From an uncultured Spirochaetota bacterium (GTDB lineage Bacteria > Spirochaetota > Brevinematia > Brevinematales > JAOACQ01): a stretch of 64,000 bases of DNA. The first letter of the stretch is position 1. Every line of letters begins with the position of its first letter. The position numbers were made by a program, and so were the translations under genes. Positions 1,832 through 33,812 of the stretch are shown piece by piece. The DNA lies in NCBI GenBank assembly GCA_963783575.1, contig CAWAOD010000005.1:192001-256000 (forward strand), written 5' to 3'. The notes beneath the pieces are model-generated. The model saw only the letters and a list, made by a program, of their open reading frames with translations. It ran no database searches and was not told the DNA's origin.

Positions 1832-4800
1832 ATGGAAAATAAAATGATAAATAATCGTTATGAGATTGTCAGGCAGATCGATGAAGGGGGGATATCGAAG
1901 GTATACCTGGCGAGGGATATTGAGACGAAGGGCGAGGTAGTGGTCAGGACGCTGAAGAAGGAAATAATATCGAGCAGGATAGAAGATATCATTCGTTTCC
2001 GGAATGAAGCTGCGATATTATCCCGGCTGGACCATCCGAATATTGTCAAGTTATATGAAACCGCTGAATTTGAAGGACAGAATTATATAGTAATGGAGTA
2101 TATTCCCGGGGAAAGTTTGTATAAAATCATTAAAAGCGGGAAAAAGTTTCTGGAGAGAGAAATAATAGAAATGACGATCCAGATATGCAGTTCTCTGGAT
2201 TATATACACCCGATGAGCATAATTCATAGGGATTTGAAGCCTGGCAATATTATGGTGCATACCGATATGAAAGGTGAGCTTCATATTAAAACTATTGATT
2301 TTGGCCTGGCATTTTTAAAGGAATACTCCTCAATAAAAGGCATAGAAGATATAGCCGGGACCTTCTGTTACATGCCGCCGGAACAGTTCGGGGTCATCAG
2401 TGGAGGCGTGGACGAGAGGAGCGACCTATACTCGCTGGGGATTATCTTATACCAGCTGTTAACGGGGGTCCTGCCTTTTGAGGGAGAAACCCCGGGCTCT
2501 ATTATCCACCGGCAGATCGCGATGATTCCGGAGACCCCTTCTTATTATAATAAATCCATATCGGAAACTCTTGATAAAATTGTATTGAAGCTCCTGGAGA
2601 AGGAGCCGGACAGGCGTTACCAATCGGCGAAAGGCCTGCTCTTCGACCTGGAAAAGTACAAAAAAGGGGAGCGGAATTTCCATCCGGGCATACATGACAA
2701 GCATATAAAATTGACATTTAAAACGGGGCTGATATCGCGGGAGGAAGAATTCAGCGCCATAAAGGAATTATACGATAAAGCCCGGAAAGGTGAGGGGAGT
2801 GTCTGTTTTATCAGCGGGGAAGCGGGGAAAGGTAAGACCAGGCTGGCTGAAGAGTTGAGGAGCCATGTCTATACTGAAGGCGGCGTTTTTATAGATGGGA
2901 AATGCTTTGCCGGGAAGAGCAAGACGCCATACGGTCCATTTAAGGACGCCCTCAACATTTATTTAAAGATATACCAGGGTTATCAGGAAGAAAAAAAGCA
3001 GGATATTAAGAATAAGTTAAACGAGATGACGGGTGATCTCTGCGGCCTGATCCTGCAGCTTAACCCGTCATTTTCAGTGATTTTTAATAAAAGACCGGAA
3101 TTGGTAAGGCTTGAGATTGACAGGGAAAAGAAGAGATTTTTAATGGTTGTGGGGCAATTTTTCCTGAATCTCAGCAGTGTTGACAATAAGATGGTCATAT
3201 TCCTTGATGATTTACAGTGGGCGGATGAAGGCAGCATGGACCTGTTAACCGAAATATCGGGGGAATTGAGTAAATATCCGCTATTCATCATCGGGACATA
3301 CCGCAATGATGAAATAAGTTCGGACCATAAGCTTATCTCATATAAAGAAAAAGCCGCAATAAATCAATATCCGTATCATGAAATATACCTTGAAGAGTTT
3401 AGTAGGGTGGTTGTCAAGAAATTAGTTATCTCATTACTTTACGCGAAGGTGGAGAATATAGAAGAGATATCTGATGTGATCCATAAGAAGAGTAAGGGGA
3501 ACCCGTTCTTTGCGATAGAGATCCTCAAACAGTTCGTGAGTGAGAATATCTTATACTATAAAGAGAATTCCTGGGTAATTGACGCTGGCAAACTGAGGGG
3601 AGTGGAGATAGCGTCGACGATAGTTGATATAGTGATGAAGAGAATATCACTGTTAAGTGATGAGGAAACGAAGGTCCTTTCCTATGCTGCGGTGATAGGA
3701 AGAAGGTTTGACGCCGGGATATTGTTCCGCCTGCTGGACTATGAAGCGCCGGAGATCATCCGGATAGTGGACCGGGCGATCAAGCTGCAGCTCCTGGAGG
3801 AAGACATACAGGAAAAAGGGAAGATATTATTTGCGCATGACCGGATCAAAGAGGCTTTTTATAAAAAGTGCGGGGAGGGAGAGAGAAAACTGCTGCACAG
3901 GCGGATAGGCAAAACGATGGAGGAGATGAACCGGGGTGATAAAGAGAAAGTGATCTTTGATCTGGCATATCATTATATAGAGGGTGAAGAAGAAGAGAAG
4001 ATTCTGGAATACGCTTACCCCGCCGGGATCAAAGCGAAAGAAAATTACGCTTATGAAGAAGCGATAAGGTGTTTATCTTTCATAAACAGAATAACGGAAG
4101 GAAAAGGAGAGGAAGGTAAGGAACTATGGATAAATACGAACAGGAATATTATTGAAATCTACCTGGTAATCGGAAAAAATGATGAGGCGATAGAAATCAG
4201 CGGTAAAATATTACCATTTATCGCGGATAAGTTAAACAAAGCGGAAATATGTAAGCAAATAAGCACAGCTTATTTTAAAAAAGGAGACTGGAGGAACTGT
4301 GAAGAATACGGAAGAAAAGGTTTATCATTGCTGGGAGAAAAGCTGCCAGTTGAAAATGTCGCAATAATATTTAGAATCATAAATGACTCTTAAAGCATAT
4401 TTTACATCAGTTGTTTCCAAAAATATTTATAAAAAATATTGGGAATCGCGATATTGAGAAATATAAATTAATAGTATGGTTTTATATAACATTAAACTGG
4501 ATGTATTCATTAAGCGATATTGTCAAAATGGTAGGGAATCAATTGAGGATGTTAAATATTTCAGAAAGCAAGATCGGAAAATCACGAGAATTGGGATTGA
4601 GTATGGGAGCATATGCCGGAATATGCATGGCAATCCCGCTATTTCGCCATTCAATCGAGTTTCATGAAAAAGCCCTTCAGTTAAGAAAAGAAATGAACGA
4701 TCAATGGGGTATTGCGCAGTCATTGCAATTGCTTGGATTTTGTTATCAATGGAAAGGAGATTATGAGAAGAGTAATAATTATTTTTTAGAAAGTTATGAC

Positions 4801-7244
4801 AAATTCAAAAAAATGGGCGATTTATGGGAAGTTAAAATGGTTTTACAGGGGATGGATTTGAATTATTTATGGTTAGGCGATTATAAAAAAAGCCTGGAAT
4901 TAATTGATCAATACCTGAAAATAAGTGAACAGTTGAATGATAATTATGGAATATGCAGCGCTATGAGCGACTACGCCTTAGTCAATTATCAAAGAGGGAA
5001 TTACGATCAGGCGTTGAAATACGCCGAAAAATCATTAATCATATCGGAAGAACATAAGATAGTATTAATCGATTGTCTTGTTAATATTTATATGGGAAAT
5101 GTATTAAATGAGTTTGGTGATTATAAAAAAAGCATTGAACACCTTGAAAGAGCATATGAATTATATGAGAATAATAACCTGCTGGAATATTACTCGGTCT
5201 TTATTTATTCTTATCTTGCGGAAGCATATTTAATTGAATTTACCAATTTGTATTCTCATAAAATCAAAGGCAAGAAAAAAGAGTTAAATAAGATAAAAAA
5301 ATTATGTAAAAAGGCCCTATTAAAAACCAGGCCATGGAAAGCCCATTATAGTGAAACGTTGCGGATTAGCGCCAGATATTACAGCTTTATCGGTAAAACA
5401 AAAAAAGCCGAGCGTTTGCTTTTGCAGAGTATAAATATAAACACCAAATTAGGGAAACCACATGATCTTGCACTGGGGCTTTATGAGTATGGTAAGCTTT
5501 TAAAAGAAACAGGACGTGCGGAGGAAGCGAAAAAGCGTATTGAGTCTTCTTATATAATATTGAAAGAGATTGACTCTAAAGTCTACTTGAAGAGAGTATC
5601 GGATATGCTCGGAATAAACGAAAAAGAGGAGAAGGACGATATGGATTCTATTCAAAAGCTTAAGTACAGGGAAAGATTATCATCCATAATAAAAGTCAGC
5701 CAGACAATCAGTTCGATACTCAACCTGGACCTTCTGCTGAAAAATATTGTCACACTGGCCATGGAAATTACCGGAGCCCAGAGGGGTTATCTTTTCATAA
5801 AAGACGAGGTTTCAGGGGAACTTGTCCTGAAAGTTAAGAAATTCATAAACGAGGGGAAAATCGATTCCAGGCCGTCTGTTATATATTCCGGAAATATCGT
5901 TAAAGCAGTTTTTAAAACCGGGGAGGCTGTTCTCTTAAACGACGCGGAACAGGATGCCGATTATTCAAAATATAACAGTGTAGTCCTGCACAGGCTGAAA
6001 TCCATTCTCTGTGTTCCCATTAAACATCAAAACACGATCCTGGGTGTATGCTATTTTGATAACCCGCTCTCCTCATCCGTTTTTTCCGCTGAAGATCAAG
6101 AAATCCTGGAAGCCATAATGACGCAGGCCGCCATATCCATAGAAAACGCCAGACTCTATGAAATAACGAAAATAATGAAAGAGAAAGCCGAGAATGAAGT
6201 GGAAAAACTGACCATTCATATTTTACAGAAGCAGGAAAAACAGCTTGACGAAAAAAGCTCCCTGGTCTATCAGAGCCCCCAGATGCAGGAGGTTGTCGGT
6301 AAGGTCAGCCAGGCCGTAAAAATATCCAGACCGATTTTGATCACGGGTGAGACAGGCACGGGAAAGGAACTTATAGCAAAACTCATTCATTATTCGGGAA
6401 AATATCAAAATGAGCCATTCATTGCTTTAAACTGTGCGACTATTCCCCCAGCTATCTGGGAAGCGGAGCTGTTCGGTCATGTCAAAGGGTCATTTACCGA
6501 CGCGAAAGCGAACCGTGAAGGCCGGGTTACGGCGGTGAGAAAGGGACTCTCTTTTTTGACGAAATCGGTGAAATGCCTCTAGACATTCAATCCAAAATTC
6601 TTCGTCTTCTGCAGGAAAATCAATACAGTCCCATCGGGAGCAATAAAGTATTGACTTCTAACTGCCGGTTTGTTTTTGCCACGAACAGGAAAGTGGAGGA
6701 AATGATCAATGAGGGGAAATTCAGGAAAGACCTTTATTACAGGATCAATGTCTTTAATATTCATATACCGCCGTTAAGGGAAAGAAAAGAAGACATTCCC
6801 GTTTTGCTGGATTATTTTGTTAAGCAGTATTCCAGTGAGTTCGGTCTTCCTGGAAATCTTGAAGTTGAAAAGAAAGCGATGAATAAGATTATTAATTACA
6901 GTTGGCCTGGAAACATCAGGGAAATGGAAAACTTTGTCATCCGCGCACTGGCTCTTTTATCCGACTCGGAAAACGATAAAAACGTATTGAAGTTAAATCA
7001 CTTCCCGTCCAGTATTGAAGCTGTTTTTCAGAATGATGAAATAAAAAAGGAAGTAAAAGCGGCCGGAGAGGATCAGGAGGTCATAATTAACGGAAATTAT
7101 GACGAGCTTGTCAACCAGTATTCAAAATTTCTGATCCAGCAGGCGCTCAAGCGGTCATTCGGAAACATCAGGATTGCCGCCGAAATACTGGGCGTTAAGC
7201 GGACTACTCTGAATGATAAGATAAAAATCCTTAATATAAAATGA
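1832..7244 (+). pseudogene. Kinase-like/AAA(STAND)/TPR/GAF/sigma54 activator, copy A, split by two frameshifts (~4387, ~6535); pseudogene or sequencing error
   Basis: ORFs 1832-4393, 4411-6582 and 6573-7244 are colinear with intact 17691-23099. Motifs HRDLKPGN, DFG, GEAGKGKT, LDDLQWAD, GETGTGKE, GSFTDA, WPGNIRE and a Fis-type HTH. AATGACTCTT here versus AATGAGCTCTT in copy B. Confidence 0.85.
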
Positions 7245-7339
7245 ATAAATCCGTATTTGAGCGCTTGTGCACATTCGATCCTGCTTCATAATTATTCATA
7301 ATAATCAGCCTGCCCGGTTTTATAAATAATACGGCAGGA

Positions 7340-7374
7340 GACGTTTAAACGTCCAAATCAGACGGTTTTCCGTC
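7340..7374 (+). promoter_or_regulatory. Putative upstream activator sequence, type A
   Basis: GACGTTTAAACGTC and GACGGTTTTCCGTC, starts 21 bp apart, ~135 bp upstream of a -24/-12 promoter. Confidence 0.7.
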
Positions 7375-7509
7375 ATCTTTATCCCCAAAAAAGCGAATGA
7401 TTCTAAACAAAAAAACATTTATCTTGGGAATTTATTAATTTCTCAATTTCATATAATGCAAAGAATTATCCTCATCTGGCATATTCAAATCACAATTCCG
7501 AATCTTATC

Positions 7510-7526
7510 CTGGCATACGATTTGCT
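7510..7526 (+). promoter_or_regulatory. sigma54 (-24/-12) promoter P1
   Basis: CTGGCATACGATTTGCT fits the YTGGCACGRNNNTTGCW spacing. Confidence 0.85.
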
Positions 7527-7928: not shown

Positions 7929-8972
7929 ATGAAGAAAGTGTTGGCAATAATCATTGAAATAATGATTATTACGTGTGTTTTCGTTTTATCAGGCTGCAAT
8001 TTATCGCCTGGACCGGGCAATGATAAAAAATCCGGATCCAGTGCCAATGAGCCTATTTCCACAAGCAGCGGGCCAAAAAGGGCAGTTACGGCCAGTCAGG
8101 TACAACAGCTGGCGTATCCTTATGCTGGCTACCCTTTCATAAGCGGGGCGCAGGGCGAAATCTGCAAAGATCCGAACAATCCGCTTAAGCCAACATATGA
8201 TATCGGCTACATGCAAGACGGAGCTGTTTGCAATTATCCGAATGTAAGCTTTCCTTACGGAATGGTAAATTTTACTGCCAGTGTAGCAAGCGGGGGAAGC
8301 GGCGGAACCATCGAAGTATGGGGAGGATATCCCTCTACAAAGTTGTTCCAAATCAGTGTTAATAATACCGGTGGATGGCAGAATTGGACTACTGTAAGTT
8401 GCCATATTCCCAATTACGCAGGCCTGAATCTGGGTAACACAGGTTTTACTCTTATATTTCACGGTGTATCAGGCAACATGTTCAACATTGACTCGGTTAC
8501 ATTTCAAGGACTAGCTACTCCTACTTCCGGTGGAGCAATTTTCAACAAAATGTCCATCCAACAGTTTAAAAACAAAATGATGGCTATGCCAGATTATCAA
8601 AAGGGTACGCAAGCCCAAATAACGGCTCTGGCTAGTGGCGCATACGGAATATGGGCTTATCCATTTGGAGGACATTATCAGCTAGTTAGCCCTTATACTT
8701 ATAACAACCAAGGGGTCACAACTTTAGTATTAGGAGTAGATGCCGGTTCAACGGACGATGGCGCCAGGATTATTCAATGGACTATTGATAATCCTGAGAC
8801 CGCTAATCAGTTATGGGATTTTGTGCCTGTCGGCGACGGAAGCTACAAAATTCAAAACGTTGGCAGCGGTAAGTTCATAGGCGTTGATGCCTGTATAATT
8901 GCCGATGGCAGACCGTTAATTCAATGGCATGATGATGGATTCTCTGATAAGCAGTGGATATTCATGGATTGA
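7929..8972 (+). CDS. Non-catalytic lipoprotein with CBM6 and ricin-type beta-trefoil
   Basis: LSGC lipobox; TGGWQNWTTV CBM6 motif; QxW repeats (IIQW, QLW, LIQW); no GH43 domain. Confidence 0.85.
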   Translation: MKKVLAIIIEIMIITCVFVLSGCNLSPGPGNDKKSGSSANEPISTSSGPKRAVTASQVQQLAYPYAGYPFISGAQGEICKDPNNPLKPTYDIGYMQDGAVCNYPNVSFPYGMVNFTASVASGGSGGTIEVWGGYPSTKLFQISVNNTGGWQNWTTVSCHIPNYAGLNLGNTGFTLIFHGVSGNMFNIDSVTFQGLATPTSGGAIFNKMSIQQFKNKMMAMPDYQKGTQAQITALASGAYGIWAYPFGGHYQLVSPYTYNNQGVTTLVLGVDAGSTDDGARIIQWTIDNPETANQLWDFVPVGDGSYKIQNVGSGKFIGVDACIIADGRPLIQWHDDGFSDKQWIFMD

Positions 8973-9010: not shown

Positions 9011-9052
9011 GGGGGCAAGGAAGCGTTTTAGGCAATCCTTGCCCCTCTCTTT
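9011..9052 (+). terminator. Intrinsic terminator, copied with each cassette
   Basis: GGGGCAAGGA...TCCTTGCCCC hairpin with pyrimidine tail. Confidence 0.65.
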
Positions 9053-9198: not shown

Positions 9199-9233
9199 GA
9201 CGTTTAAACGTCCAAATCAGACGGTTTTCCGTC
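9199..9233 (+). promoter_or_regulatory. Putative upstream activator sequence, type A
   Basis: Identical to 7340-7374. Confidence 0.7.
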
Positions 9234-9365
9234 TTATTTATCTTCAAAAAAGCAAACGATACTATACAAAAAAATTTTGCCATGGAATTTTTTAATTTCT
9301 CATTTTCAGATAATGCAAGGAATTATCCTCATTCGGCATATTCAAATCACAATTCCTGACCCATC

Positions 9366-9382
9366 CTGGCATACGGTTTGCG
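9366..9382 (+). promoter_or_regulatory. sigma54 promoter P2
   Basis: CTGGCATACGGTTTGCG. Confidence 0.8.
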
Positions 9383-9821: not shown

Positions 9822-11783
9822 ATGAAGCCAGTGTTGGCAATAATCATTGAAATGATGATTATTTCGTGTATTTTCGTTTTATCAGGCTGCAGTTTGACAC
9901 CTCAAGAGAAAAATGCATCCAAATCCGCATCAGCAGGGCCCGTAAATAACGCACCGTTATTACACACAGGCCCGAACTTTAGTGTCGGTACCCCATCCAC
10001 TTACGGAACACCTTTATTTACGTACCGTAATTCTTCAGACCCCCATTCATACGTCTTCAATGGAGTGCTTTACCTTTACACTTCGTGCGATTTAAACGGG
10101 CAGGGTGCGCCGACATATCCGATGAATACCACATATTGTTATTCGACTTCCGATTTGATTAACTGGACTGATAATGGTGCAATGGTAACAGAAAGTCAAC
10201 TTCCATGGGCTTCGCAGGTCAATGGGATGTGGGCGCCTTGCGCTGCTTACAAAAACGGAACATATTATCTTTATGTACCTGAGAAAATAAATCAGGATGG
10301 ATCCCAAATGAGAATCGGTGTATGCACTGGCAGTACTCCAACGGGCACATTTGCACCTCCGCAGAATTATATGACAATACCAACCGTAGCGAACGCCCCC
10401 CAGGGGGATTTTAATTCCGACCCCTATGTGTTTATTGATACCGGCGGCACTCCATATATGCTATATTGCGACGGGAATAACCCGCAAGGGAGGGTATGCA
10501 TAGTACAGATGGACAACATGACAACAATAACTAAAACGCCTGTTACAATAGATTCAAGAATAACTGGCGGTAACCCGCCTCAGAATCAATTTGAGGAAGG
10601 CGCAAGATTAATTTTAACTAACGGCACATACTACCTGTACTATCCGGCTTCCGTTAACTCCGTCAACGAATACCTGGTTTATGCTACATCCACTACCGGC
10701 CCGATGGGGCCATATACTTACAAGGGCCAATTTATGAAGGCAAACCAAGGTGAATGGACTATTCAGGGCGATATTGTTAATTATGATAATAAATGGGTAC
10801 TCTTTTATCACGATACCCCGATGACACCTCAATACGCAAGAATGGTGTGCGCGGAATATTTTAACTTTAATAGCGATTATTCTATTCCTCAGATCAACAG
10901 GACTGTGCAGGGGCTTACGGTAGACCCGACCAATCAGATACAGGCTGCTACTTACTTCAGTCAAGCCGGAGGTCTGCAGACCGAAGCAACCAGTGATCCG
11001 GGCAGCACTCTGGATGTAGGATTTATTCAAAACGGAAGTTATTGTTATTATAGCGGAATTAACTTTATGGCTAATAATGGAACGGGACTCACAGGGTTCA
11101 CTGCACGCGTAGCGAGCGCGACAAGCGGCGGATACATTAAGATATATCAGTACGACCCTTCTAGTGGTATTTTGCTGGGAACCGTATCGGTTCCAGGAAC
11201 CGGGGGCTGGCAGAACTGGGTTACAGTATCATGCTCCTTCGTTAATCCTTCTCCGGGACCGAGAATGAATCAAATTTGTCTTGTGTTTACCGGTCAATCG
11301 GGTTACCTGTTCAACATAGACCGGTTTCAATTTTCGTACAACGGAGGCGTAACTCCCGGTGTTTATACAATTAAGAACAGGAATAGCGGCACCGTGATGG
11401 ATATGCCCCAACCGTATACCAAGGGTACGCAAGCTGATATCCACTCTTATCTTGGTTATAACAATCGGCAGTGGATCATTCAAAATTCAGGGCCCTATAT
11501 TACCATACAGAATAATTACACCAAATTTGTATTAGGAGTAGATGCTGATTCAACGGGGCAGGGCGCTCGCATTATTCAATGGGATGCTAACAGTAAACCT
11601 TCTCAGCAATGGACTCTGGTGCCTGTAACTGGCCAAGGCGTCTCCGGATATTTCTACATTCAAAATGTTAACAGCGGTATGAATATAGGCTGTGATGGCG
11701 GGAAAATTGCCGATGGTACACCGTTAATCCAATGGCCGTATGATGGATCCTTGAATCAGCAGTGGTCATTCCAGGCTCCGTAA
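9822..11783 (+). CDS. GH43 glycoside hydrolase-CBM6-ricin beta-trefoil lipoprotein
   Basis: LSGC lipobox; SSDP, MWAP, NSDP and FEEG GH43 motifs; TGGWQNW CBM6; QxW repeats. Confidence 0.9.
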   Translation: MKPVLAIIIEMMIISCIFVLSGCSLTPQEKNASKSASAGPVNNAPLLHTGPNFSVGTPSTYGTPLFTYRNSSDPHSYVFNGVLYLYTSCDLNGQGAPTYPMNTTYCYSTSDLINWTDNGAMVTESQLPWASQVNGMWAPCAAYKNGTYYLYVPEKINQDGSQMRIGVCTGSTPTGTFAPPQNYMTIPTVANAPQGDFNSDPYVFIDTGGTPYMLYCDGNNPQGRVCIVQMDNMTTITKTPVTIDSRITGGNPPQNQFEEGARLILTNGTYYLYYPASVNSVNEYLVYATSTTGPMGPYTYKGQFMKANQGEWTIQGDIVNYDNKWVLFYHDTPMTPQYARMVCAEYFNFNSDYSIPQINRTVQGLTVDPTNQIQAATYFSQAGGLQTEATSDPGSTLDVGFIQNGSYCYYSGINFMANNGTGLTGFTARVASATSGGYIKIYQYDPSSGILLGTVSVPGTGGWQNWVTVSCSFVNPSPGPRMNQICLVFTGQSGYLFNIDRFQFSYNGGVTPGVYTIKNRNSGTVMDMPQPYTKGTQADIHSYLGYNNRQWIIQNSGPYITIQNNYTKFVLGVDADSTGQGARIIQWDANSKPSQQWTLVPVTGQGVSGYFYIQNVNSGMNIGCDGGKIADGTPLIQWPYDGSLNQQWSFQAP

Positions 11784-11824: not shown

Positions 11825-11865
11825 GGGGCAAGGAAGGGTTTTACATCTTCCTTGCCCCTTCCTTT
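11825..11865 (+). terminator. Intrinsic terminator
   Basis: GGGGCAAGGAAG...CTTCCTTGCCCC. Confidence 0.65.
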
Positions 11866-11945: not shown

Positions 11946-11980
11946 GACATTTAAACGTCCAAATCAGACGGTTTTTCGTC
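11946..11980 (+). promoter_or_regulatory. Putative upstream activator sequence, type A
   Basis: GACATTTAAACGTC and GACGGTTTTTCGTC. Confidence 0.65.
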
Positions 11981-12113
11981 TTCTTTATCATCAAAAAAGC
12001 GAATGATCCTATACAAAAACATTTACTTTGGGAATCTTTTAATTTCTCATCTTCATATAATATAAGGAATTATCCTCACCCGGCATATTCAAATCACAAT
12101 TCCGGACTCCATC

Positions 12114-12130
12114 CTGGCATACGATTTGCT
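12114..12130 (+). promoter_or_regulatory. sigma54 promoter P3
   Basis: CTGGCATACGATTTGCT. Confidence 0.85.
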
Positions 12131-12147
12131 TATAAGCATATTGGTGA

Positions 12148-12344: not shown

Positions 12345-12699
12345 ATGAAAGAAAAAAAATGGATCGCTGTAAAAATAGAAAAGAGCTTTTTTATTGTACA
12401 TATAGTCACAAAAAGCGGGGTGCACAAAATCCAGAAAATATTCCTTGAAAAAAGACGGGATCGGTGAATTTATAAATGAACTGGATTTTGATACGGTTAT
12501 TAATATAGAAAAAAGCGATAACGCACAGAAACTTATAGAAAATATCAAAGGGCTGATAAAAGACTGTTTCGTGTTGAATAAAGTGGAATTGCTTGAATTC
12601 AACGGTTATTTTGATGAAAATAATATGGACTCGATATACGATATTGAAAGTATAACAGCTGATAATATTAAAGGGGAGAATCAGGAAAGTTTACGTTAA
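12345..12699 (+). CDS. Small protein, paralog of 30693-31046, with a +1 frameshift in an A-run near 12435
   Basis: RBS AAGGGGGA and ATG 12345; MKEKKWIAVKIEKSFFIVHIVTKSGVHKIQ, then shifts into ORF 12445-12699. Confidence 0.75.
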
Positions 12700-14943: not shown

Positions 14944-14979
14944 AACCCTGATGATGTTTTATTCATCAGGGTTTTTTTT
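14944..14979 (+). terminator. Intrinsic terminator
   Basis: AACCCTGATGA...TCATCAGGGTT followed by a T-run. Confidence 0.8.
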
Positions 14980-23145: not shown

Positions 23146-23181
23146 GACAAAATTCAGTCACTTTTAAGACAAATTTTTGTC
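23146..23181 (+). promoter_or_regulatory. Putative upstream activator sequence, type B
   Basis: GACAAAATTCAGTC and GACAAATTTTTGTC, starts 22 bp apart. Confidence 0.7.
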
Positions 23182-23312
23182 TCTTTTCGTCTTATTTGAA
23201 ACGGCCGCATAATTGTAAATAAATCTTTATTTAACATATTTAATCCATTAAATTATATATAGCAAGGAATTATCTCATTCTGCATATTCAAATCACAATT
23301 CCGGACCCCATC

Positions 23313-23329
23313 CTGGCATATAGTTTGCA
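23313..23329 (+). promoter_or_regulatory. sigma54 promoter P4
   Basis: CTGGCATATAGTTTGCA. Confidence 0.85.
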
Positions 23330-23477: not shown

Positions 23478-25455
23478 ATGAAGAAAGTGTTGGCAATAAT
23501 CATTGAATTGATGATTATTATGTGTATTTTCGTTTTATCAGGATGCAATTTATCGCCTGGGCCGGGAAAAGAAGCATCCAAATCCGTATCGCCGGTATCG
23601 CCCGCAGGTCCGAAGTTTAGCATCGGTACCCAGCAGGTTTCAGGGACAGTTACCAATATCGGCAGGCCTTTATTTTCGTTCCGTAGTTCCTCGGATCCAC
23701 ATGCCCGCGTATTCAACGGACAGGTTTACATTTACTGTTCACAAGATATGTACGGCAACAGCGGCGGCGGTATTTATCCGATGAACACTACTTACTGCTA
23801 TTCATCAGCCGATCTGGTAAACTGGAAGGATAACGGCGCGGTAATGACGGAAAACCAACTTCCCTGGGCAGCCCATGGATCCAACGAGCTTTGGGCGCCA
23901 TGCTGTGTCCAGAACCCGAACAATGGGCAATATTACCTTTATGAACCTGATGAACCTAATAACGGTGCCAACTCCTATGACAAGAGGATCGGGGTAAGTG
24001 TAGCATCCAGCCCGACGGGTCCTTTTACCCCATTGCAGAATTATATAAGCATTCCAAGAGTTGCGAACGCCCCCCAGGGAGACTTCAATTGCGATCCTTT
24101 CGTGTTTATTGACACGGCAAACGGCAACACACCGTATCTTTTATATTGCGACGGAAATAACCCAAATGGTAGGGACTGTATCGTACAGATGAACAGCGAC
24201 TTTGAGACAGTAAGCAAACAGCCAGTAACGGTAGATTCATTGATGGCTAACGGAGTGCCGGCAAATCAGTTCGAGGAAGGCCCGAGGCTTTTCTACATCA
24301 ATAGCAAGTACTACCTGATTATGCCTGTTTCTTACGGCGGATCTGAATATCTGGCTTACGCCATATCAACCCAAGGGCCGATGGGTCCTTATACTTTCAA
24401 GGGTAATTTTATGTCGCAGAACCAGGCGGAATGGACTATCCAGGGAGACATCGTTCAGTTTGACAACAAGAACGTACTGTTTTATCATGATGTTCAGCAG
24501 CCCCAGATAAAAGGTTTTTACAGACAGGTGTGCGGGGAATATTTTTATTTTAACAGCGACGGGTTACTTCCCCAGATCTCAAGAACCCAGCAGGGGCTCA
24601 CTATTGACACCACCAATATAGTACAGGCAGCTAGCTACTTCACAGCCTCCAGCGGCGTACAGACAGAATCAACCGGTGATCCGGGCAGCGGTCTGGATGT
24701 TGGATGGATTCAAAATGGAAGCTGGATTGAATACAGCGGGATGAACTTTGCCAATCTTAACATTACCGGTTTTACCATTAGCGTAGCGAGTGCGACAAGC
24801 GGCGGTAATATTTATATAATGGCGCCGAGCACAGGCGGTCTCGGCTGGGTTGAAATCGGACAGGTCAGCGTTCCTTCCACTGGAGGCTGGCAGAACTGGA
24901 CGACGGTAACATGCCCCATTAATTACAATTCACTGCCTGGACCTCAAACCATTGAACTTCAATTTTCCGGCGGTTCGGGTTACCTGTTAAACATAGACCA
25001 GTTCCAGTTTTCCGGTAACGGAGGAATCGCCCCGGGTACTTACAAAATTATTAACAGGAATAGCGGCACAGCTATGGACATGACCGGGTTTTCAACGAGT
25101 GCAGGCACCCAGGCCCAGATATGGGCTTATGGCGGAGGCGCCAACCAGAAGTGGACCCTTCAGCCCTCTGGGCCCTGACTATTACATCATAAATGTCAAC
25201 AGCGGTCTGGTACTGGGAGTAACTTCCGCTTCATTGAATGAAGGCACTTCCATCGTTCAATGGCAGCAAATCAGCGGCCATCCCGATCAACTGTGGATCC
25301 TGCAGCCTGTCTATAATTATTACTATATTAAAAATTTGAACAGCGGACAGGTAATAGGATGTTGTAACGGAACAACTACCAACGGCACACCGCTGGTCCA
25401 GTGGCCAGCCATTTCAGGAGATCTGGACCAGGAGTGGTCATTCCAGAATCCGTAG
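23478..25455 (+). CDS. GH43-CBM6-ricin lipoprotein, frameshift near 25172
   Basis: RBS AGGAGG and ATG 23478; SSDP, LWAP, CDP, FEEGP; CBM6; trefoil continues in ORF 25099-25455. Confidence 0.85.
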
Positions 25456-25571: not shown

Positions 25572-25837
25572 GTTTTGAAATTAATGCGCCTGCCTTCCAA
25601 TATTAATACCTTTATTAAACCGGTTAAAATATTACAGGAAGAGAAAAAAAGATTGTAAAAGAGGAAATCGTTGTAGATGGTAATTATGAAGATATACTCA
25701 ATCAGCATTCAAAGAAAATGATCGAATGGGCCCTTAATAAATCAAAGGGCAATATAAAGAAAACGGCCGAAATACTGGGTATAAAGCGAACGACTATGAA
25801 TTATAAAGTCAAAGAACTTAAAATAGATATAGAGTAA
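25572..25837 (+). repeat. Decayed copy of the last ~265 nt (HTH region) of regulator copy B
   Basis: Matches ~22833-23099 with indels. Confidence 0.9.
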
Positions 25838-25882
25838 ACTTTTCAAAAAACCTTAATCACCCGGTGATATTATTTTGTCATA

Positions 25883-25918
25883 GACAAAATTCAGTCACTT
25901 TTAAGACAAATTTTTGTC
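25883..25918 (+). promoter_or_regulatory. Putative upstream activator sequence, type B
   Basis: Identical to 23146-23181. Confidence 0.7.
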
Positions 25919-26049
25919 TCTTTTCGTCTTATTTGAAACGGCCGTATAATTATAAATAAATCTTTATTTAACATATTTAATCCATTAAATTATATATAGC
26001 AAGGAATTATCTCATTCTGCATATTCAAATCACAATTCCGGACCCCATC

Positions 26050-26066
26050 CTGGCATATAGTTTGCA
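26050..26066 (+). promoter_or_regulatory. sigma54 promoter P5, separated from its gene by the IS
   Basis: CTGGCATATAGTTTGCA. Confidence 0.85.
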
Positions 26067-26206: not shown

Positions 26207-27825
26207 CAGACTGTGTGAAAACTCAGTAAAATTTTATAGTAAAATCGATTAATTATACAAAAACTCCATTTTTTGATATATTTTTCAAGCTAAAAAAATC
26301 TTAGTTTAAAAAATCTATCCGAATACGATAAACGATGGTTTATTAGCATCAAACCAGAGTCATAAGTCTCTTTATTCCCAATATATTCAATACTTTTATT
26401 AAATTATGAATGAATCCTGCCAAACTGGATTCCGTCAGAACGCCATCCTTTCCCTTCATTAAAAAATAACTGTAACCCATATTCCTTTTTATCGATCCAA
26501 ATGGATGTTCACATATCTCTTTCCTTTTCTCTATGATCTTTTTCCCGGCTTCAGAACGAATTTTCCTCTTGAAGTTCTCAATTTCTTCTTTTCTAACTGG
26601 TACTTTGATACTTCGTCCTTCCACGCTTTCAGTACACTTATTTCTTACTTCACATTGGCTGCATAAGCCGCACTTGTACCTGACTATCTCTTTTCCTCCA
26701 TTGACCTTCTCTACTTTTTTCCCATTTCTCACTAATGGGTTTCCCTCCGGACAATAATAAACATTTTGTCCCGGATCATATTTGAATTTATCAACCTGGT
26801 ATTCTTCAGCAGGTACTCCTTTATTATCTTCTTTGCCTCGAATCCTTGCCTTATGTCCGTCATCCGGATTCGGCATATATACGTTATGTCCCTTATCTAT
26901 ACATTCCAGTATCTGCGGTTCGCTGTAATAACCGGCATCCGATACTTTGACCGTTTCAGTCTCTACCTTAAGCTCGTCCTTTATTTCTTCTACTCGGTCA
27001 CACATTCCTGCCATCTGCAGATTATATGCAATGTCGGATTTCCCTTTATCATTCATAAACCGGCTTTCCGGGTCATTTGAATAATATTTCTCCATTTCAG
27101 GATTTCCCTCAAAAATCTTTTTAATAGCCTCAACTTTATCCTTTTTTGTTTTCATTTTCTTTAAACGTTCCGCTATCTTTCCGGAAAGAAATTCAAATTC
27201 ATTCTTTTCTTCCTTATCGTTCTTATCCATCTCATTCAAATATTCTTCGATCTTTTGATCTATTCTATGTATGATTTCTTCTATGTTTTTCCTATGATAA
27301 ACATTGTTATTGTGGTTTTGCGCACTGATCTTGGTTCCATCAATTCCAACAACGTCAAATGATAAAAGCCCGGCTTTATGACATATCTTCAAAAATTCTC
27401 TGAATATCGACTGTATTCCCTTCTTATTATCTTTCCTGAAGTCGGCAATCGTCTTGAAATCCGGCGCTAGTCGTCCAGTCAGCCACATCAACTCTGTGTT
27501 TCTTCGGCACTCTCTCTCTAATTTCCTGCTTGTCCTGATTTTATTCAAATATCCGTAAATATAGATTTTTAAAAGTATTTCGGATTTATATGAACTTCTG
27601 CCGGTTGATGCTTCTTTTACTTTAAAACCAACTCCTTTCATATTTAGCTTATCAACAAAAATATCTATAAACCTTACCGGATCTTCTTCTCCTAACAGAT
27701 CTTCCAGTGTTTCATTGAACAGAACTATCTGATCCCTTGATTCTCCCTCAATATGCTTCATCTTTTACTCCGATTATTTTTGTTCTAATAATTATAGCAT
27801 ATTTACTGAGTTTTCACACAGTCTG
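26207..27825 (-). mobile_element. IS1182-family insertion sequence, 1619 bp
   Basis: Perfect 24-bp inverted repeats CAGACTGTGTGAAAACTCAGTAAA / TTTACTGAGTTTTCACACAGTCTG; 3-bp direct repeat ATA. Confidence 0.92.
26349..27761 (-). CDS. IS1182-family DDE transposase
   Basis: IYGYLNKIRTSRKLE, PDFKTIADFR, IDGTKI, SDAGYYS, EHPFGSIK. Confidence 0.92.
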   Translation of the reverse strand: MKHIEGESRDQIVLFNETLEDLLGEEDPVRFIDIFVDKLNMKGVGFKVKEASTGRSSYKSEILLKIYIYGYLNKIRTSRKLERECRRNTELMWLTGRLAPDFKTIADFRKDNKKGIQSIFREFLKICHKAGLLSFDVVGIDGTKISAQNHNNNVYHRKNIEEIIHRIDQKIEEYLNEMDKNDKEEKNEFEFLSGKIAERLKKMKTKKDKVEAIKKIFEGNPEMEKYYSNDPESRFMNDKGKSDIAYNLQMAGMCDRVEEIKDELKVETETVKVSDAGYYSEPQILECIDKGHNVYMPNPDDGHKARIRGKEDNKGVPAEEYQVDKFKYDPGQNVYYCPEGNPLVRNGKKVEKVNGGKEIVRYKCGLCSQCEVRNKCTESVEGRSIKVPVRKEEIENFKRKIRSEAGKKIIEKRKEICEHPFGSIKRNMGYSYFLMKGKDGVLTESSLAGFIHNLIKVLNILGIKRLMTLV

Positions 27826-28096: not shown

Positions 28097-30047
28097 ATGA
28101 AGCCAGTGTTGGCAATAATCATTGAAATGATGATTATTACGTATATTCTCGTTTTATCAGGCTGCAGTTTATCGCCTGGACCGGGTAAAGAAGCATCCAA
28201 ATCCGCATCAGTAGGGCCTGTAAATAACGCGCCGGAATCACACACAGGTACGGAGTTTAACATCGGTACCCCAGCTACTTACGGGACACCTTTATTTACT
28301 ACGCGTAATTCTTCAGACCCCCATTCCAGTATCTTCAATGGTGTGCTTTACCTTTACACTTCGAGCGATATGGGCATTACAGGCTCATATCCAATGAGTA
28401 CGACATATTGTTATTCAACTTCCGATTTGATCAACTGGACAGATAATGGCGCAATGATCAATGAAAACTCGCTTCCATGGGCTTATCATAACACCAACCA
28501 GTTATGGGCCCCAGACTGCGTTTACGCAAACGGTCAATATTACCTTTATACGCCAGACGACGCTGCTGATGCAACCGGGAATGATATAGGCAAGAGGATC
28601 GGAGTATCCATTTCAACCAGCCCTACGGGCCCGTTTATTCCTCAGAATGATTATATCCATATCCCTACAGTAGCGGGCGCCCCCCAGGGAGATTTTGCAA
28701 GCGACCCCGATGTTTTTATTGATACCAACGGTACTCCATATATGCTATATTGCGATGGAAATGCCCCGAAAGGGAGGGTCTGCATTATAAAATTAGACCC
28801 AAGCATGACAAAGACAGCGGCAAACGCAACGCCTGTACTAATAGAATCATTAGGCAACGGCACTTTTCCTAATCAGTTCGAGGAAGGCGCGAGGTTAAGC
28901 CTTATTAATGGCATATACTACCTGTACTATCCGGTTTCCATTGGGAGTCGAGAATTCATTGTTTATGCTATGGCAAGAAATGTGATGGGCCCTTATACTT
29001 ACCATGACAAATTTATGTCGGCAAACCAAACTGAATGGACTGTTCAGGGCGATATAGCTAATTATGATAATAAATGGATACTCTTTTATCATGATACCCC
29101 GATGGTATCCCAGGGATATAAAAGAATGGTGTGCGGAGAATATTTTACCTTTAACTCCGATGGAACTATTCCTACAATCAGCAGGACAGTAGAAGGGCTT
29201 ACGGTAAACCCGAACAATCAGATACAGGCGGCTACTTACTTCAGTCAATCCGGGGGTCTGCAGACCGAACCGACCAGCGATCCGGGAAGCAGTCTGGATG
29301 TCAGGATGGATTCGAAATGGAAGTTATTGCTATTATAGCGGAATAAACTTTAACAATGCTAACTACATAGAGTTTTTTGCGAGCGTAGCGAGTCCAAGTA
29401 ACGGCGGAACCATCTCATTATATCAGTGGGACCCTAGCAGAGGTATTTTGCTGGGAACATGCGCTGTTCCAAACACCGGAGGCTATCGGAAATGGGTTAC
29501 AGTATCATGCAACATAGCCAGTCCATCTCCGGGACCTTTCATGAAACAACTTTGTCTTAAGTTTACCGGCGGACCGGGTTACATGTTCAACATAGACCGG
29601 TTTACATTTACAACTGACAGTTTTCCCGGTATTTATAAAATTATCAACAGGAATAGCGGCACAGCGATAGATATGCCGGGATCTTCAAAGGGTACTCAGG
29701 CCCAGATATGGACTTGGGGGCAAACAGCCAATCAAAGATGGACCGTTCAATTTTCCGGAAGCTATTTTTACATGATGAACAATTATAGTAGTTTGGTATT
29801 AGGCGTATTAAGTGCTTCACTGAACCCGGGCGCAAAGATTGTTCAATGGTCTCATAACACTTCCAGTGATCAGCAATGGGAGCTGGTGCCAACCGGTGAC
29901 GGATATTACTATATTCAAGACGTTAACAGCGGATGCGTTATAGACTGTCAAGGCGGGGCAACTGCCGATGGCACCCAATTAATCCAATGGCCGAATGATG
30001 GAGCCAATAGTCAACAGTGGTCATTACAGGATGCCGCCAATAATTGA
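28097..30047 (+). CDS. GH43-CBM6-ricin lipoprotein, frameshift near 29302
   Basis: ORFs 28097-29338 and 29298-30047 are colinear with 9822-11783; GATGTCAGGATGG versus GATGTTGGATGG in the paralog. Confidence 0.85.
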
Positions 30048-30164: not shown

Positions 30165-30433
30165 GTTTTGAAATTGATGCACCTGCCTTCCAAATATCTG
30201 TATCTTTATTAAGCCGGTTAAAATATTACAGGAAGAGAAAGAAAAGATTGTAAAAGAGGAATTGTCGTTGATGGTAAATATGAAGATATACTTAATCAGC
30301 ATTCAAAGAGAAAATGATCGAATGGACCCTTAATGAATCAAAGGTTAATATAAAGAAAGTAACCGAAATATTGGGTATAAAGCGAACGATCCTGAATTAT
30401 AAAGTCAAAGAACTTAAAATAAATATAAAGTAA
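30165..30433 (+). repeat. Second, more decayed copy of the regulator B 3' end
   Basis: Homologous to ~22833-23099 and 25572-25837. Confidence 0.85.
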
Positions 30434-30478
30434 ACCTTTCAAAAAACCTTAATCACCCGGCGGCATTATTTTGTCATA

Positions 30479-30514
30479 GACAAATTTCAGTCACTTTTAA
30501 GACAAAATTTTGTC
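30479..30514 (+). promoter_or_regulatory. Putative upstream activator sequence, type B
   Basis: GACAAATTTCAGTC and GACAAAATTTTGTC. Confidence 0.7.
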
Positions 30515-30646
30515 TATTTTCGTCTTATTTGAAATGGCCGCATAATCGTGAATAAATCTTTATTTAACATATTTAATCCATTAAATTATATATGGCAAGG
30601 AATTATCCTAATCTGTCATATTCAAATCACAATACCGGACCACATC

Positions 30647-30663
30647 CTGGCATATGGTTTGCA
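30647..30663 (+). promoter_or_regulatory. sigma54 promoter P6
   Basis: CTGGCATATGGTTTGCA. Confidence 0.85.
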
Positions 30664-30692: not shown

Positions 30693-31046
30693 ATGAAAGA
30701 AAAAAAATGGATCGCTGTAAAAATAGAAAAGAGCTTTTTTATTGTTCATATTGTCACAAAAAGTGGAGTGCACAAAATACAGAGGTATTCATTGAAAAAA
30801 TCCGGGATCAGTGAATTTATGAAGGAACTGGATTATGATACGGTTATTAACATAGAAAAAAACGATAACATACAGAAATTTATAGAAAAAATCAAAGGGC
30901 TGATAAAAGACTGTTCCGTGTTGAATAAATTGGAATTGCTGGAATTCAACGGTTATTTTGATGAAAGTAATATGGATGCAGCATATGATATTGAAAGTAA
31001 AATAACAGATAATATCGAAACGGAAAATCAGGTAAGTTTAAAATAG
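30693..31046 (+). CDS. 117-aa protein resembling a degenerate IS110 RuvC-like (DEDD) N-terminal domain
   Basis: First ORF after P6; paralog at 12345; pattern WIAVKIEKSFFIVHIV...G..EF...L...TVINIE...VLN. Confidence applies to the CDS; the family call is weaker. Confidence 0.7.
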   Translation: MKEKKWIAVKIEKSFFIVHIVTKSGVHKIQRYSLKKSGISEFMKELDYDTVINIEKNDNIQKFIEKIKGLIKDCSVLNKLELLEFNGYFDESNMDAAYDIESKITDNIETENQVSLK

Positions 31047-31186: not shown

Positions 31187-32384
31187 GTGAAAACAAAAAT
31201 TTCGTTAGTGTTAATGTTTTTAGTAATTGGACTTTCCGGATGCAGTCTTGATATCCAACAGCATCCTAGTGATACACAGAACAAGAGTTTGGATTCTGGA
31301 AACTTAACAAGATCGGTGTCAGCTGCGATACCTATATCAACTACTTATACCACTTCAGATCCAACGGGGCGTGTTATGCCTGATGATAACTGTGTCTATG
31401 TGTATACATCAAGTGACTTAGATCAGTCTGGCAGCTGGCCAATGAATCAAACACGTGCTTTTCGTGCACCAAATACAGCAGATCCAGCCAGTTTTGTTTT
31501 TCAGCCTGTTAATGATAATGGCGGGGTGATACTTAATGAAAGTCAAATACCCTGGGTAACAGGGTCGCCTAATCACTTATGGGCTCCGGATTGTGTATAT
31601 GAATTTGATAATTATTGGGATAAAAGTTATTATTTATATTTTCCGGACATAATAAATAATAATGGTACGCAATCCAGGATCGGTGTAGCGACTGCCTCAA
31701 CCCCTGATGCTGCTGCTGGTTATGGTACTGCCGGCGGTTTTTACCCAGAGGCCAATTATATACAAGGTATTGGTACTACGGCAAATAGCGGCTATGCAAG
31801 TGATCCGTGTATATTTCAAAGTTATCCGGGTGGTCCTTCCTGGCTGGTATATTGTACCGGAGATTGGAATACTACTCAAACAAAAGGGATGCTTGCCATG
31901 GCAAAATTGAATAGTGATATGAAAACCGTACGTTCAGGATCAGATAAAGCAATAACTATAACTGGCTTACCCAGCAAGTATGTTTATTTAGAAGGACCAT
32001 ATTTAATTGAATCTTATATAGCCGGAAAAAATAGATTTTATCTGATGTTCTCCGCTAAAGCGAATGACAATAATCAACAGGACCTTTGTTATGCTATGGC
32101 TGATGATTCCTACCCGCCTATTTGGGTACCGCCATATACCTTCACATACAAAGGCGTTATTATGCCGGGTAAAACTGGTGTAGCGAGCAGTAACTGGACC
32201 GATCATGGTTCTATTTGTATGACTTATGCTAATGGTGTTATGAAATATGTTTTATTCTATCATGAAGGTGATCAGACACCGGCAAATGGTCATGCCGGGA
32301 AATCTAAGGCATGCATATATGAAGGTTAGTGACCCATTTTTTAATACTACTGATGGAACAATAAATGTCCCGATAAATCCTTAA
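31187..32384 (+). CDS. GH43 catalytic-domain lipoprotein; ORF stops at 32329, probable frameshift extends it to 32384
   Basis: RBS AGGAGG, GTG start, LSGC; TSDP, LWAPD, ASDP, LEGP; shifted frame reads VSDPFFNTTDGTINVP, like paralog FNSDGTIP. Confidence 0.85.
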
Positions 32385-32421: not shown

Positions 32422-32449
32422 AGTTCATGCGGTTCCGGACGCATGAACT
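32422..32449. terminator. Hairpin after the GH43 gene
   Basis: AGTTCATGCG-8 nt-CGCATGAACT, no clear T-tail. Confidence 0.4.
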
Positions 32450-32697: not shown

Positions 32698-33756
32698 ATG
32701 AAAAAATCTAGGTTGATTTCGTTTGGCGGTTTTATCTTGATTTTAGCTCTCATAGTAGGGTGCAGTATTTTTAACCAAAGTGTGAGCAACCAGAGTGCGA
32801 AAGAATATTCGAATGGAAACATGCGCGCCGGTTCCATAACCACATACGGTAAACCGTTATTTCCTTACCCAAATTCTTCAGACCCGTCGGTAAGGCACTT
32901 TTATTATTTACACCCCAAAACCGGCGGCGAGCTTTATCTTTACACTACAAGCGATTTAAACGGCCACGCCTTTCCGATTAGCAATATTTATGTTTATGAT
33001 ACTGTTGATGAGGTCTGGTGGTATTATCTCGGTACTCCGGTGTTGACCGAAACAGATTTCAAATGGTGTTTGCCACAAAAGCACTTATGGGCTCCCGATT
33101 GTTACCAGAATCCTCATAATGGTATCTATTATCTGTTTGTACCCGCAATGGACTCAAACGGAGTGTCGAGAATAGGTATTGCTACAAACAACAACCCCTT
33201 GACCCATTTTACAGCTCTTCCGAATTACCTCCAGGGTATAGAAGGCTATGCCAGCGATCCGGGAATATTCTATGACTATTATAGCGCCAGCGACTACATA
33301 GTTTATAATACCGGCCCTGCTCCCTATGGAACAATTGCCATGGCAGTATTAAGCCTGGATTATCAAAGCGCAACTCAGATTGAATTAACGATAAACGGTG
33401 CTCCTGACACATACATGGAAGGCCCGGCACTGGGTTCATTCGTTGGTAATACCTACTGTTTATACTTCGCAATGTATACCAATGCCCCCTTCAACAAAGA
33501 ATGTATAGCCTATGCGACGGCCGACAAAGTCACAGGCCCCTATACCTATCAAGGTGTGATCATGGATCCGAATGCCAAAGAAGGGTCCATTCAGGCCTCC
33601 ATTATGTGGTGGAACAATCACTGGTCCTTCTACTATCATGATAATCAGGGCTCAAGCCCCGGATACAACAGGAAAGTATGCGCCGAATATCTGACCATTA
33701 ATCCCGATGGCACAATTCCAAAAATTTACAGAACAACATTAGGGCTTACAAATTAA
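32698..33756 (+). CDS. GH43 catalytic-domain lipoprotein
   Basis: RBS AGGAGG and ATG 32698; IVGC lipobox; SSDP, LWAPD, ASDP, MEGP. Confidence 0.9.
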   Translation: MKKSRLISFGGFILILALIVGCSIFNQSVSNQSAKEYSNGNMRAGSITTYGKPLFPYPNSSDPSVRHFYYLHPKTGGELYLYTTSDLNGHAFPISNIYVYDTVDEVWWYYLGTPVLTETDFKWCLPQKHLWAPDCYQNPHNGIYYLFVPAMDSNGVSRIGIATNNNPLTHFTALPNYLQGIEGYASDPGIFYDYYSASDYIVYNTGPAPYGTIAMAVLSLDYQSATQIELTINGAPDTYMEGPALGSFVGNTYCLYFAMYTNAPFNKECIAYATADKVTGPYTYQGVIMDPNAKEGSIQASIMWWNNHWSFYYHDNQGSSPGYNRKVCAEYLTINPDGTIPKIYRTTLGLTN

Positions 33757-33778
33757 GCTCTTATAACCAAATAAATAT

Positions 33779-33812
33779 GCGGCTCTTGCGGTAATGCAAG
33801 CGCCGCTTTTTT
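33779..33812 (+). terminator. Intrinsic terminator
   Basis: GCGGCTCTTGC...GCAAGCGCCGC followed by T6. Confidence 0.7.

Follow-up and report, generated by a model that had tools for sequence, protein, structure and literature searches.

A predicted sigma54 switch with a giant kinase-STAND-TPR-GAF activator and duplicated enhancer-promoter units in an uncultured spirochaete

Here we analysed a 64,000-nucleotide stretch of DNA from an uncultured Spirochaetota bacterium (hereafter the window), which corresponds to C5:192001-256000 in the 18 contigs of the 4.9-Mb source genome, G000. The window contains two copies of a giant regulator with the domain order kinase-STAND-TPR-GAF-AAA+-helix-turn-helix (HTH), predicted to be a bacterial enhancer-binding protein (bEBP), and each copy is followed by three enhancer-promoter units and by genes for surface lipoproteins. 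It is very likely, as predicted from the sequence, that each giant bEBP drives the units adjacent to it through sigma54. The reading we prefer, with a probability of about 0.6, is that regulator and unit constitute a portable switch, that the regulon arose by duplication of the unit, and that the switch answers to a general cue rather than to a xylan-specific sugar.

Regulator copy 2 (17691..23099, + strand) is an intact single open reading frame (ORF) of 1802 aa. The domain search assigned Pkinase to residues 6-260, AAA_16 to 296-483 (E 1.9e-27), a TPR region, GAF to 1294-1433, Sigma54_activat to 1475-1641 and the C-terminal Fis-type HTH (HTH_8, E 1.4e-10) to 1762-1796. The STAND part had Walker A at 325 (GEAGKGKT) and Walker B at 452 (hhhhDD), and the bEBP AAA+ domain carried Walker A (GETGTGKE, 1502), a GAFTDA loop (1549), Walker B (LFFDEIG, 1570) and the R-finger/sensor II motifs FREDLYYR (1627) and WPGNVRE (1688). 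The best NCBIfam scores were those of nifA and NorR, both under the cut-off. Copy 1 (1832..7244, + strand) has the same domain order and 92.5% DNA identity to copy 2, with a GSFTDA loop. The preliminary description had reported two copies of ~1800 aa; this held for copy 2, but copy 1 reads as three ORFs, which had gone unmentioned. GAFTDA and GSFTDA are tolerated variants of GAFTGA, as G5-to-D (FlgR) and A2-to-S (LevR) occur in validated activators according to the available text of PMC3162934.

The two copies diverge unevenly along their length. The synonymous divergence (pS) was 0.02-0.05 in the kinase/STAND part vs 0.53-0.68 in the AAA+/HTH part, and the recognition helix starts with TTLNDK in copy 1 (KRTTLNDKIK) but with TTLNYK in copy 2 (KRTTLNYKVK). 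We infer that recent conversion or duplication has kept a single type of sensor in both copies, where it is joined to two different DNA-binding outputs. The TPR was the most variable region of the regulator (35-69% identity vs 58-83% elsewhere) and fell into two types. A structure model of residues 1-1195 (mean predicted local distance difference test 87.9) matched PknB-type kinases and the STAND-TPR structure 6MFV (fold match E 1.7e-14). A transmembrane helix is not expected, as the 19-residue hydropathy peaks at 1.8, within a TPR helix, and there was no LuxR match among 25 of the 27 families listed.

In the kinase domain, the beta3 (VAIK) lysine is replaced by Arg35, which the model places on strand beta3. 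This arginine was present in the window protein, in the homologues P0001-P0006 and in all paralogs of the source genome, and 39/47 kinase-bearing matches had Lys. The alphaC Glu (E55), HRDLKPGN (128), DFG (152) and MPPE (177) were kept. The glycine loop was DEGGIS in the window copies and GEGGIS in the C14 paralog, its third Gly being Ser in 28/47 matches. Since a Lys-to-Arg change at beta3 usually kills kinase activity, the domain is likely a pseudokinase, although the invariant Lys38 might compensate for the lost lysine.

The six units, three per regulator copy, lie on the + strand where the preliminary description had placed them, each with tandem palindromes, a conserved block directly before the promoter, and a -24/-12 box. 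Unit 1 consists of an enhancer at 7340..7374 (palindromes at 7340/7361, GACG-N6-CGTC type, 21 bp apart; no strand assigned), the block at 7460..7500, directly 5' of the promoter, and the promoter TGGCAT-N5-TTGC at 7511..7525. Unit 2 (9199..9381) has its enhancer at 9199-9233 (sites 9199/9220) and its promoter at 9367-9381, and unit 3 (11946..12129) has them at 11946-11980 (sites 11946/11967) and 12115-12129. Behind copy 2, unit 4 (23146..23328) comprises an enhancer at 23146-23181 (sites 23146/23168, GACA-N6-[AT]GTC, 22 bp apart) and a promoter at 23314-23328. Units 5 (25572..26065; enhancer 25883-25918, sites 25883/25905; promoter 26051-26065) and 6 (30165..30662; enhancer 30479-30514, sites 30479/30501; promoter 30648-30662) each also contain a duplicate of the 3' tail of copy 2. 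The preliminary description did not mention that the pairs are of two types: GACG-N6-CGTC at a distance of 21 bp in units 1-3 (one site being GACA), and GACA-N6-[AT]GTC at a distance of 22 bp, together with an overlapping GTC-N8-GAC, in units 4-6. The two regulator copies differ in HTH as well as in enhancer.

Exact tandem GAC-N8-GTC pairs 20-23 bp apart occurred six times in the whole 4.9-Mb genome, all of them in the window units, while single sites numbered 259. From the centre of each pair to the -24 box downstream of it, the distance is 140-165 nt. TGGCAY-N5-TTGC was found 31 times genome-wide, and spacers of 3, 4, 6, 7 and 8 gave 11, 7, 20, 7 and 10 hits. The genome carries an intact rpoN with its RpoN box, a check that the preliminary description had proposed, and two HU/IHF genes. 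The 600 nt upstream of xylA, araA and two solitary GH43 (glycoside hydrolase family 43) genes contained no -24/-12 box or N8 palindrome. The earlier claim of a sigma54 regulon switched by the adjacent bEBP is supported, as a prediction, by rpoN, the bEBP motifs, the uniqueness of the sites and the position of the promoters. As a global operator the conserved block was rejected, because the genome search found no close copy beyond the six window units, and a comparison with lac, CRP, Rex and IHF sites gave half-site fits only.

The units are duplicates of one another. Repeats of the segment 22833-23370, in which the last ~88 codons of copy 2 lie, start at 25572 (96.8% identity) and 30165 (90.8%), and there are duplicates of GH43 genes and terminators as well. 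Across the genome, three of the nine units carry the regulator 3' tail, namely units 5 and 6 and the second C14 unit. Conservation among the six units is therefore not independent evidence. The palindromes and the -24/-12 boxes were nevertheless kept in 6/6 units while the flanks diverged.

Two further paralogs in the source genome each lie at contig breaks (C5 end/C14 start and C3 start/C15 end). Both are followed by TGGAAT-N5-TTGC and a distinct repeated element, GTC-N9-[AT]AC. The C14 paralog precedes a lipoprotein with GH43, CBM6 (carbohydrate-binding module family 6) and ricin-type trefoil domains, and then a second GH43 gene with its own copy of the module, including the last codons of the regulator; the C15 paralog precedes a lipoprotein without a family match. 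Behind the clade regulators of this genome there are nine candidate promoters in total, with three enhancer types that are specific to the paralogs.

The closest full-length homologues were labelled Spirochaetales/Spirochaetaceae. They are few, with six proteins at 50-60% identity, and of 401 genomes of the phylum, three, the source genome included, had a match to the output clade that scored above E 1e-190. Ten members of the activator clade, four of them from the source genome, were examined for a -24/-12 box within 400 nt of the regulator stop. A box was present 166-271 nt after the stop in 8/10 members vs 14/2016 long ORFs of the source genome, a contrast that is overstated because the pattern was relaxed once the sites had been seen and the members are kin. 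The palindromes recurred before the promoter at the loci L105, L102 and L103, and L105 shares with copy 2 both the helix start TTLNYK and GACA-N6-TGTC sites. In this small sample the enhancer tracks the helix: TTLN goes with GAC-N8-GTC (copy 1, copy 2 and L105) and T[TS]L[YI] with GTC-N8-GAC (L102 and L103), with one imperfect site at L104. Likeness of enhancer motifs does not always follow HTH likeness, however, according to the available text of PMC4641369.

Downstream of P0001 (L105, 11587-21074) there were genes for an epimerase, three radical S-adenosylmethionine (SAM) proteins, a DegT-type aminotransferase and a flavin oxidoreductase, and a methyltransferase-like gene. P0005 (L102) precedes a regulator with periplasmic-binding-protein (PBP) and AraC parts and a radical SAM gene, and the unassigned biosynthetic cluster behind the L103 member holds acyl carrier, radical SAM and glycosyltransferase genes. 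In the bEBPs of L103 (8261-11086) and L104 (8249-11065), which fall in the same AAA+ clade, a LacI-type sugar-binding domain takes the N-terminal place of kinase-STAND. As the cargo varies among orthologs, the conserved entity, judged from these predicted loci, is the switch rather than the carbohydrate-active enzymes (CAZymes). The preliminary description had also proposed searching for the architecture beside CAZymes: CAZyme cargo lies behind both window copies and the C14 paralog, and the cargo at L102, L103, L105 and C15 is non-CAZyme. A search for related loci with the single regulator protein gave no match, and an alignment-based metagenome scan returned generic bEBPs only, at 34-46%. 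As an observation in its own right, the L105 cluster, lying behind a predicted sigma54 promoter, is a candidate biosynthetic cluster in a spirochaete.

Domain matches confirmed the seven island lipoproteins as five GH43, one GH8 and one CBM6-ricin protein, each with a Cys lipobox-like motif at its N-terminus. All are on the + strand. Behind copy 1 lie a CBM6-ricin lipoprotein without a catalytic domain (7929..8972; hairpin at ~9011-9045), a GH43-CBM6-ricin lipoprotein (9822..11783; terminator-like hairpin 11825-11858), whose nearest solved relatives are beta-xylosidases/arabinofuranosidases, and a CelA-like GH8 lipoprotein with a C-terminal trefoil and kept catalytic motifs (12720..14924; terminator-like hairpin 14944-14973). 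Behind copy 2 lie two GH43-CBM6-ricin lipoproteins, split by frameshifts near 25175 (23478..25455) and near 29302 (28097..30047), a GH43 lipoprotein with a probable frameshift near its C-terminus (31187..32329) and a seventh lipoprotein, also GH43, without an enhancer-promoter module of its own (32698..33756). The GH43 catalytic motifs (DP, DP and EG, that is, two Asp and one Glu) were present in 5/5, and the nearest solved structures were the xylosidases/arabinofuranosidases 8HCJ, 9X3M, 4NOV and 3C7G. The cargo lipoproteins are predicted to be active on xylan or arabinoxylan. Genes for xylA, araA and two GH10 proteins lie elsewhere in the genome. The reported lack of TonB/Sus, ABC transporter and two-component genes was borne out, as no SusCD, ABC transporter or two-component gene was found among the ORFs of 1832-33812.

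Between the two halves of the island, two near-identical alpha/beta-hydrolase genes (15128-15889 and 16840-17616, + strand, GHSMG motif) enclose 62 nt left over from the copy-1 tail (15988-16049, + strand) and an IS91-like fragment (16072-16374). The second hydrolase gene stops 75 nt before regulator copy 2; the product could be an esterase for xylan side groups.

Under the preferred reading, a self-contained switch would consist of the regulator gene, its own enhancer and -24/-12 promoter, and any cargo behind them. At rest, the closed STAND module may block assembly of the AAA+ output, as in MalT-type STAND proteins. A cytoplasmic cue, most likely a general one such as a nutrient, a stress or a partner protein, would bind the TPR/GAF region and open the STAND module; its oligomerisation would then bring about an AAA+ ring on the tandem palindromes ~140-165 nt 5' of the -24 box, and the ring, as in other bEBPs, would open the sigma54 holoenzyme. 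The kinase domain, with its beta3 Lys-to-Arg change and presumed inactivity, would probably serve as a docking or nucleotide-binding module. The enhancer-promoter unit appears to have been duplicated repeatedly, often with the regulator tail, before lipoproteins predicted to be active on xylan/arabinoxylan. The resulting regulon would comprise units that are, for the most part, monocistronic. In the most likely division of labour, units 1-3 respond to copy 1 and units 4-6 to copy 2, via different HTH-enhancer pairs and a near-identical sensor.

Several observations weigh against this reading. The C14 and C15 paralogs lack the exact N8 palindrome and have only the repeated GTC-N9-[AT]AC; beside P0002 and P0006 an adjacent promoter is missing, and the loop of P0006 is GAYTDA; the 8/10 vs 14/2016 contrast is, as said, inflated by the relaxed pattern and the related members. 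The GH10-CBM9 and LacI genes upstream of the L105 ortholog point towards sugar, as does the fact that members of the same AAA+ clade are also found fused with a sugar-binding domain of LacI type. Finally, this assembly shows interruptions in copy 1, in three GH43 genes and in unit 5.

The best-placed alternative, possible but clearly less probable than the portable switch with a general cue, keeps the same sigma54 wiring and takes the TPR for a MalT-like sensor of a xylan/arabinoxylan product, making the island a substrate-induced one-component CAZyme system. Consistent with this, 7/9 GH43 homologues and all CBM6 and ricin matches of our queries in the genome sit behind a regulator copy, the third paralog has gained GH43 cargo with its own enhancer, and the TPR is the most variable region and of two types, as a swappable sensor would be. 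GH10-CBM9 upstream of the L105 ortholog points the same way, and MalT binds maltotriose via its arm and sensor (available text of PMC4381067). However, P0001-P0003 share the TPR type of the window proteins (51-54%), yet P0001 precedes a radical-SAM cluster. We surveyed the neighbourhoods of 15 loci in which the same chassis has other outputs (77/103 ORFs scanned, after removal of those that were housekeeping-like or syntenic repeats); a CAZyme-like neighbour was present at 4/15, none of them GH43, GH8 or CBM6. The island also has no sugar transporter, and MalT was not among the 28 solved-structure sequence matches of the regulator. MalT-like glycan sensing, as first proposed, is the less likely option: orthologs of the same layout precede a radical-SAM cluster (L105) or a PBP-AraC regulator (L102).

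A more elaborate version is, taken as a whole, rather unlikely. It combines an AAA+ machine of two tiers, the sigma54 activator ring being templated directly by an NLR-like ring of STAND modules, with a pseudokinase cap, a portable cassette of regulator, enhancer and promoter, a sensor homogenised between paralogs, swapped HTH-enhancer pairs forming insulated channels (a recognition helix with Asn pairing with GAC-N8-GTC, one with Tyr/Ile pairing with GTC-N8-GAC), a xylan regulon that has no transporter and responds to a TPR-bound sugar, and a domesticated IS110 leader gene.

It is improbable that the island is a decaying relic of duplication, in which copy 1 and several GH43 genes would be true pseudogenes, unit 5 would be silenced by IS1182 and the modules would be passengers. 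At least five frameshifts fall in the about 25 kb of island genes vs 4 in 71 kb of conserved genes (4/57 loci broken, 0.56 per 10 kb), and the island holds IS1182, the IS91-like fragment and leader remnants. Two 1-base gaps, one near 4387 and the other at about 6528, break copy 1; nevertheless, its dN/dS against copy 2 was 0.03-0.26 in all nine segments, with no in-frame stop, and copy 2 is intact. Overlapping contig ends over the same paralog differed by 8 gaps in 3909 nt and by 6 in 4124 nt, a sign that the repeats often contain indel errors. The breaks in copy 1 and the GH43 genes are probably assembly errors rather than true decay. The palindromes and boxes, kept in all six units between diverged flanks, likewise argue against passengers. 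It is very improbable that the promoters are real but driven by another bEBP, the giant proteins acting elsewhere: the genome has about 15 bEBP loci, which also counts against the preferred reading, and one of two co-localised EBPs in Desulfovibrio failed to bind its predicted site (available text of PMC4641369), but here the enhancer type changes with the adjacent paralog, the palindrome pairs lie nowhere else in the genome, and the layout recurs in other genomes.

For the origin of the output, we built a tree of STAND domains by a quick method with a midpoint root (96/121 rows). The seven spirochaete sigma54 proteins formed one group (support 100) within a 37-row clade (support 99), whose other 30 rows had no sigma54 domain and instead GGDEF, histidine kinase, SpoIIE, LuxR or LytTR outputs or were partial. 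The kinase-STAND-TPR-GAF-sigma54 proteins of other phyla were placed outside this clade and were only 26-31% identical over the region searched; therefore the spirochaete fusion is probably separate. This suggests that the spirochaete clade gained its sigma54 output on a chassis otherwise ending in GGDEF, histidine-kinase or phosphatase domains. Elsewhere in the phylum, one genome (L202-L207) encodes eight or more proteins of the kinase-STAND-TPR-GAF type, a number of them as tandem pairs, and the relatives of this length carry GGDEF outputs. The source genome has a distant, split kinase-STAND-GAF-histidine kinase (C3:47318-51686) and an adenylate-cyclase-like STAND protein (C11:188870-192226).

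The regulator resembles the Type Ib bEBPs (NifA, NorR and FhlA) in its GAF, its AAA+ domain with all motifs, its Fis-type HTH, the palindromic enhancers and the -24/-12 promoter, and its gene adjoins the target, as in 10/13 one-component EBPs of D. vulgaris (available text of PMC4641369). Unlike them, it has 1270 extra N-terminal residues (kinase, STAND and TPR), a CAZyme cargo and a regulon built by unit duplication. With MalT of E. coli and PknK of M. tuberculosis it shares the nucleotide-binding oligomerisation domain with Walker A and B, the winged helix and the TPR array, in line with the 6MFV fold match. MalT has no kinase, carries a LuxR HTH and works with sigma70, and PknK has an active kinase but lacks a bEBP output; in the window regulator, by contrast, a second AAA+ module is the effector. 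MalT and PknK are named as one STAND subfamily in the part of PMC4381067 that was available. Anabaena HstK and Pkn41 and the relatives with GGDEF, SpoIIE or LuxR outputs share the kinase-(STAND)-GAF chassis (PMC1262709 and PMC2176072, available text), but the window regulator ends in a sigma54 activator and has the beta3 Arg where these relatives keep Lys. Control of spirochaete lipoproteins by sigma54 is known for Borrelia Rrp2, and that of saccharide degradation and uptake for CelR/LevR-like bEBPs (both from the available text of PMC3162934); unlike the window regulator, these activators have a receiver domain or are phosphorylated by the phosphotransferase system. As in polysaccharide utilisation loci, surface lipoprotein CAZymes are clustered beside a regulator, but the island lacks SusCD and ABC transporters and consists of separate sigma54 units, not one operon. 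By its predicted domains, the regulator belongs to the bEBP and STAND-TPR classes and is not MalT proper, and the island is not a polysaccharide utilisation locus.

The identical domain string is found in Acidobacteriota, Zixiibacteriota, Myxococcota and others and is frequent in several phyla (120 listed of 750 matches). Within the literature searched, mostly outside subscription journals, there was no study of a kinase-STAND-sigma54 protein and no sigma54 CAZyme regulon in spirochaetes. The statement in the preliminary description that no characterised example is known agrees with the literature searched. The domain string itself, however, is widespread in databases, and the family may already be entered among the 589 STAND clades tabulated with PMC13581612 or in the list of EBPs that accompanies PMC3162934. 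What appears new is the separate gain of the sigma54 output in this clade, the beta3 Arg, the shared sensor with differing HTH and enhancer, and a dead IS110 promoter-proximal ORF.

This small IS110-derived ORF is intact in unit 6 (30693..31046, + strand, 117 aa), where it is the first ORF after the promoter. A frameshifted copy follows the unit-3 promoter region (12345..12696, end approximate, + strand), remnants were found in units 1, 2, 4 and 5, and another intact copy lies at C15:232740-233009. The 117-aa product matched the RuvC-like DEDD domain at the N-terminus of an IS110 transposase of the same genome (30% identity across 97 aa, E 2e-13). IS621/ISCro4 were among the fold matches, and the C15 copy had an atlas score of 0.93. 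In 6/6 of the small ORFs (91-117 aa), the first catalytic Asp is Lys or Ser, and they lack the C-terminal transposase domain. Four relatives of 91-94 aa (L183, L184, L189 and L192) occurred in two other genomes of the family; among the relatives elsewhere, one lies directly 3' of a clade bEBP and its promoter and two follow radical-SAM-like genes. In the protein database, the small ORF matched only the two products of its own genome, and no Pfam family scored above the cut-off. The frames have stayed open across two genera at 39-44% identity, which suggests, from sequence conservation, a domesticated and catalytically dead IS110 fragment. A structured RNA in the leaders was rejected: there was no Rfam match at E<=1 across 1-36000, and the leaders are largely remnants of this ORF.

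An IS1182 element (26207..27825, - strand; transposase 26349-27761) with terminal repeats is inserted between promoter 5 and its gene; unlike the suspected 1-base gaps, it is a genuine insertion. Six near-identical full IS110 copies were present at C9:167926, C14:299981, C16:218142, C12:18889, C11:181325 and C11:125288. Each has a ~240-nt non-coding left end with a repeated motif, bridge-RNA-like by position, and all start at AGGAGG, as if they had landed in ribosome-binding sites; relatives were found in three other genomes of the family. In the unit-3 leader, a ~70-nt repeat (12140-12215) recurs at ~20 further places in the genome and is REP- or MITE-like.

Around the island, a lipoprotein with a phospholipase B/Ntn-hydrolase-like domain (194-1381, - strand) is divergent from regulator copy 1, and a BspA-type leucine-rich-repeat lipoprotein (35162-37045) lies immediately beyond. 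At 40101-43541, a GAF-HD-GYP-like gene and, behind it, a gene for a protein that combines a metallo-beta-lactamase fold with two cNMP-binding domains form a possible cyclic-nucleotide signalling pair. The small contigs C7 and C17 have 49-52% GC against 37% for the genome, possibly through contamination or mobile DNA.

Kinase-STAND-sigma54 fusions are common in uncultured bacteria, and none was found characterised in the literature searched. This locus offers nine candidate promoters, three paralog-specific enhancers and assayable cargo in one genome. Its study would reveal the coupling between a STAND switch and a bEBP ring, the growth of a regulon through repeated copying of one enhancer-promoter unit, and the way in which plant-glycan enzymes are controlled in a free-living spirochaete that does so with neither Sus nor two-component genes. 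A further possible use of the matched HTH and enhancer variants is as orthogonal parts for sigma54 systems.

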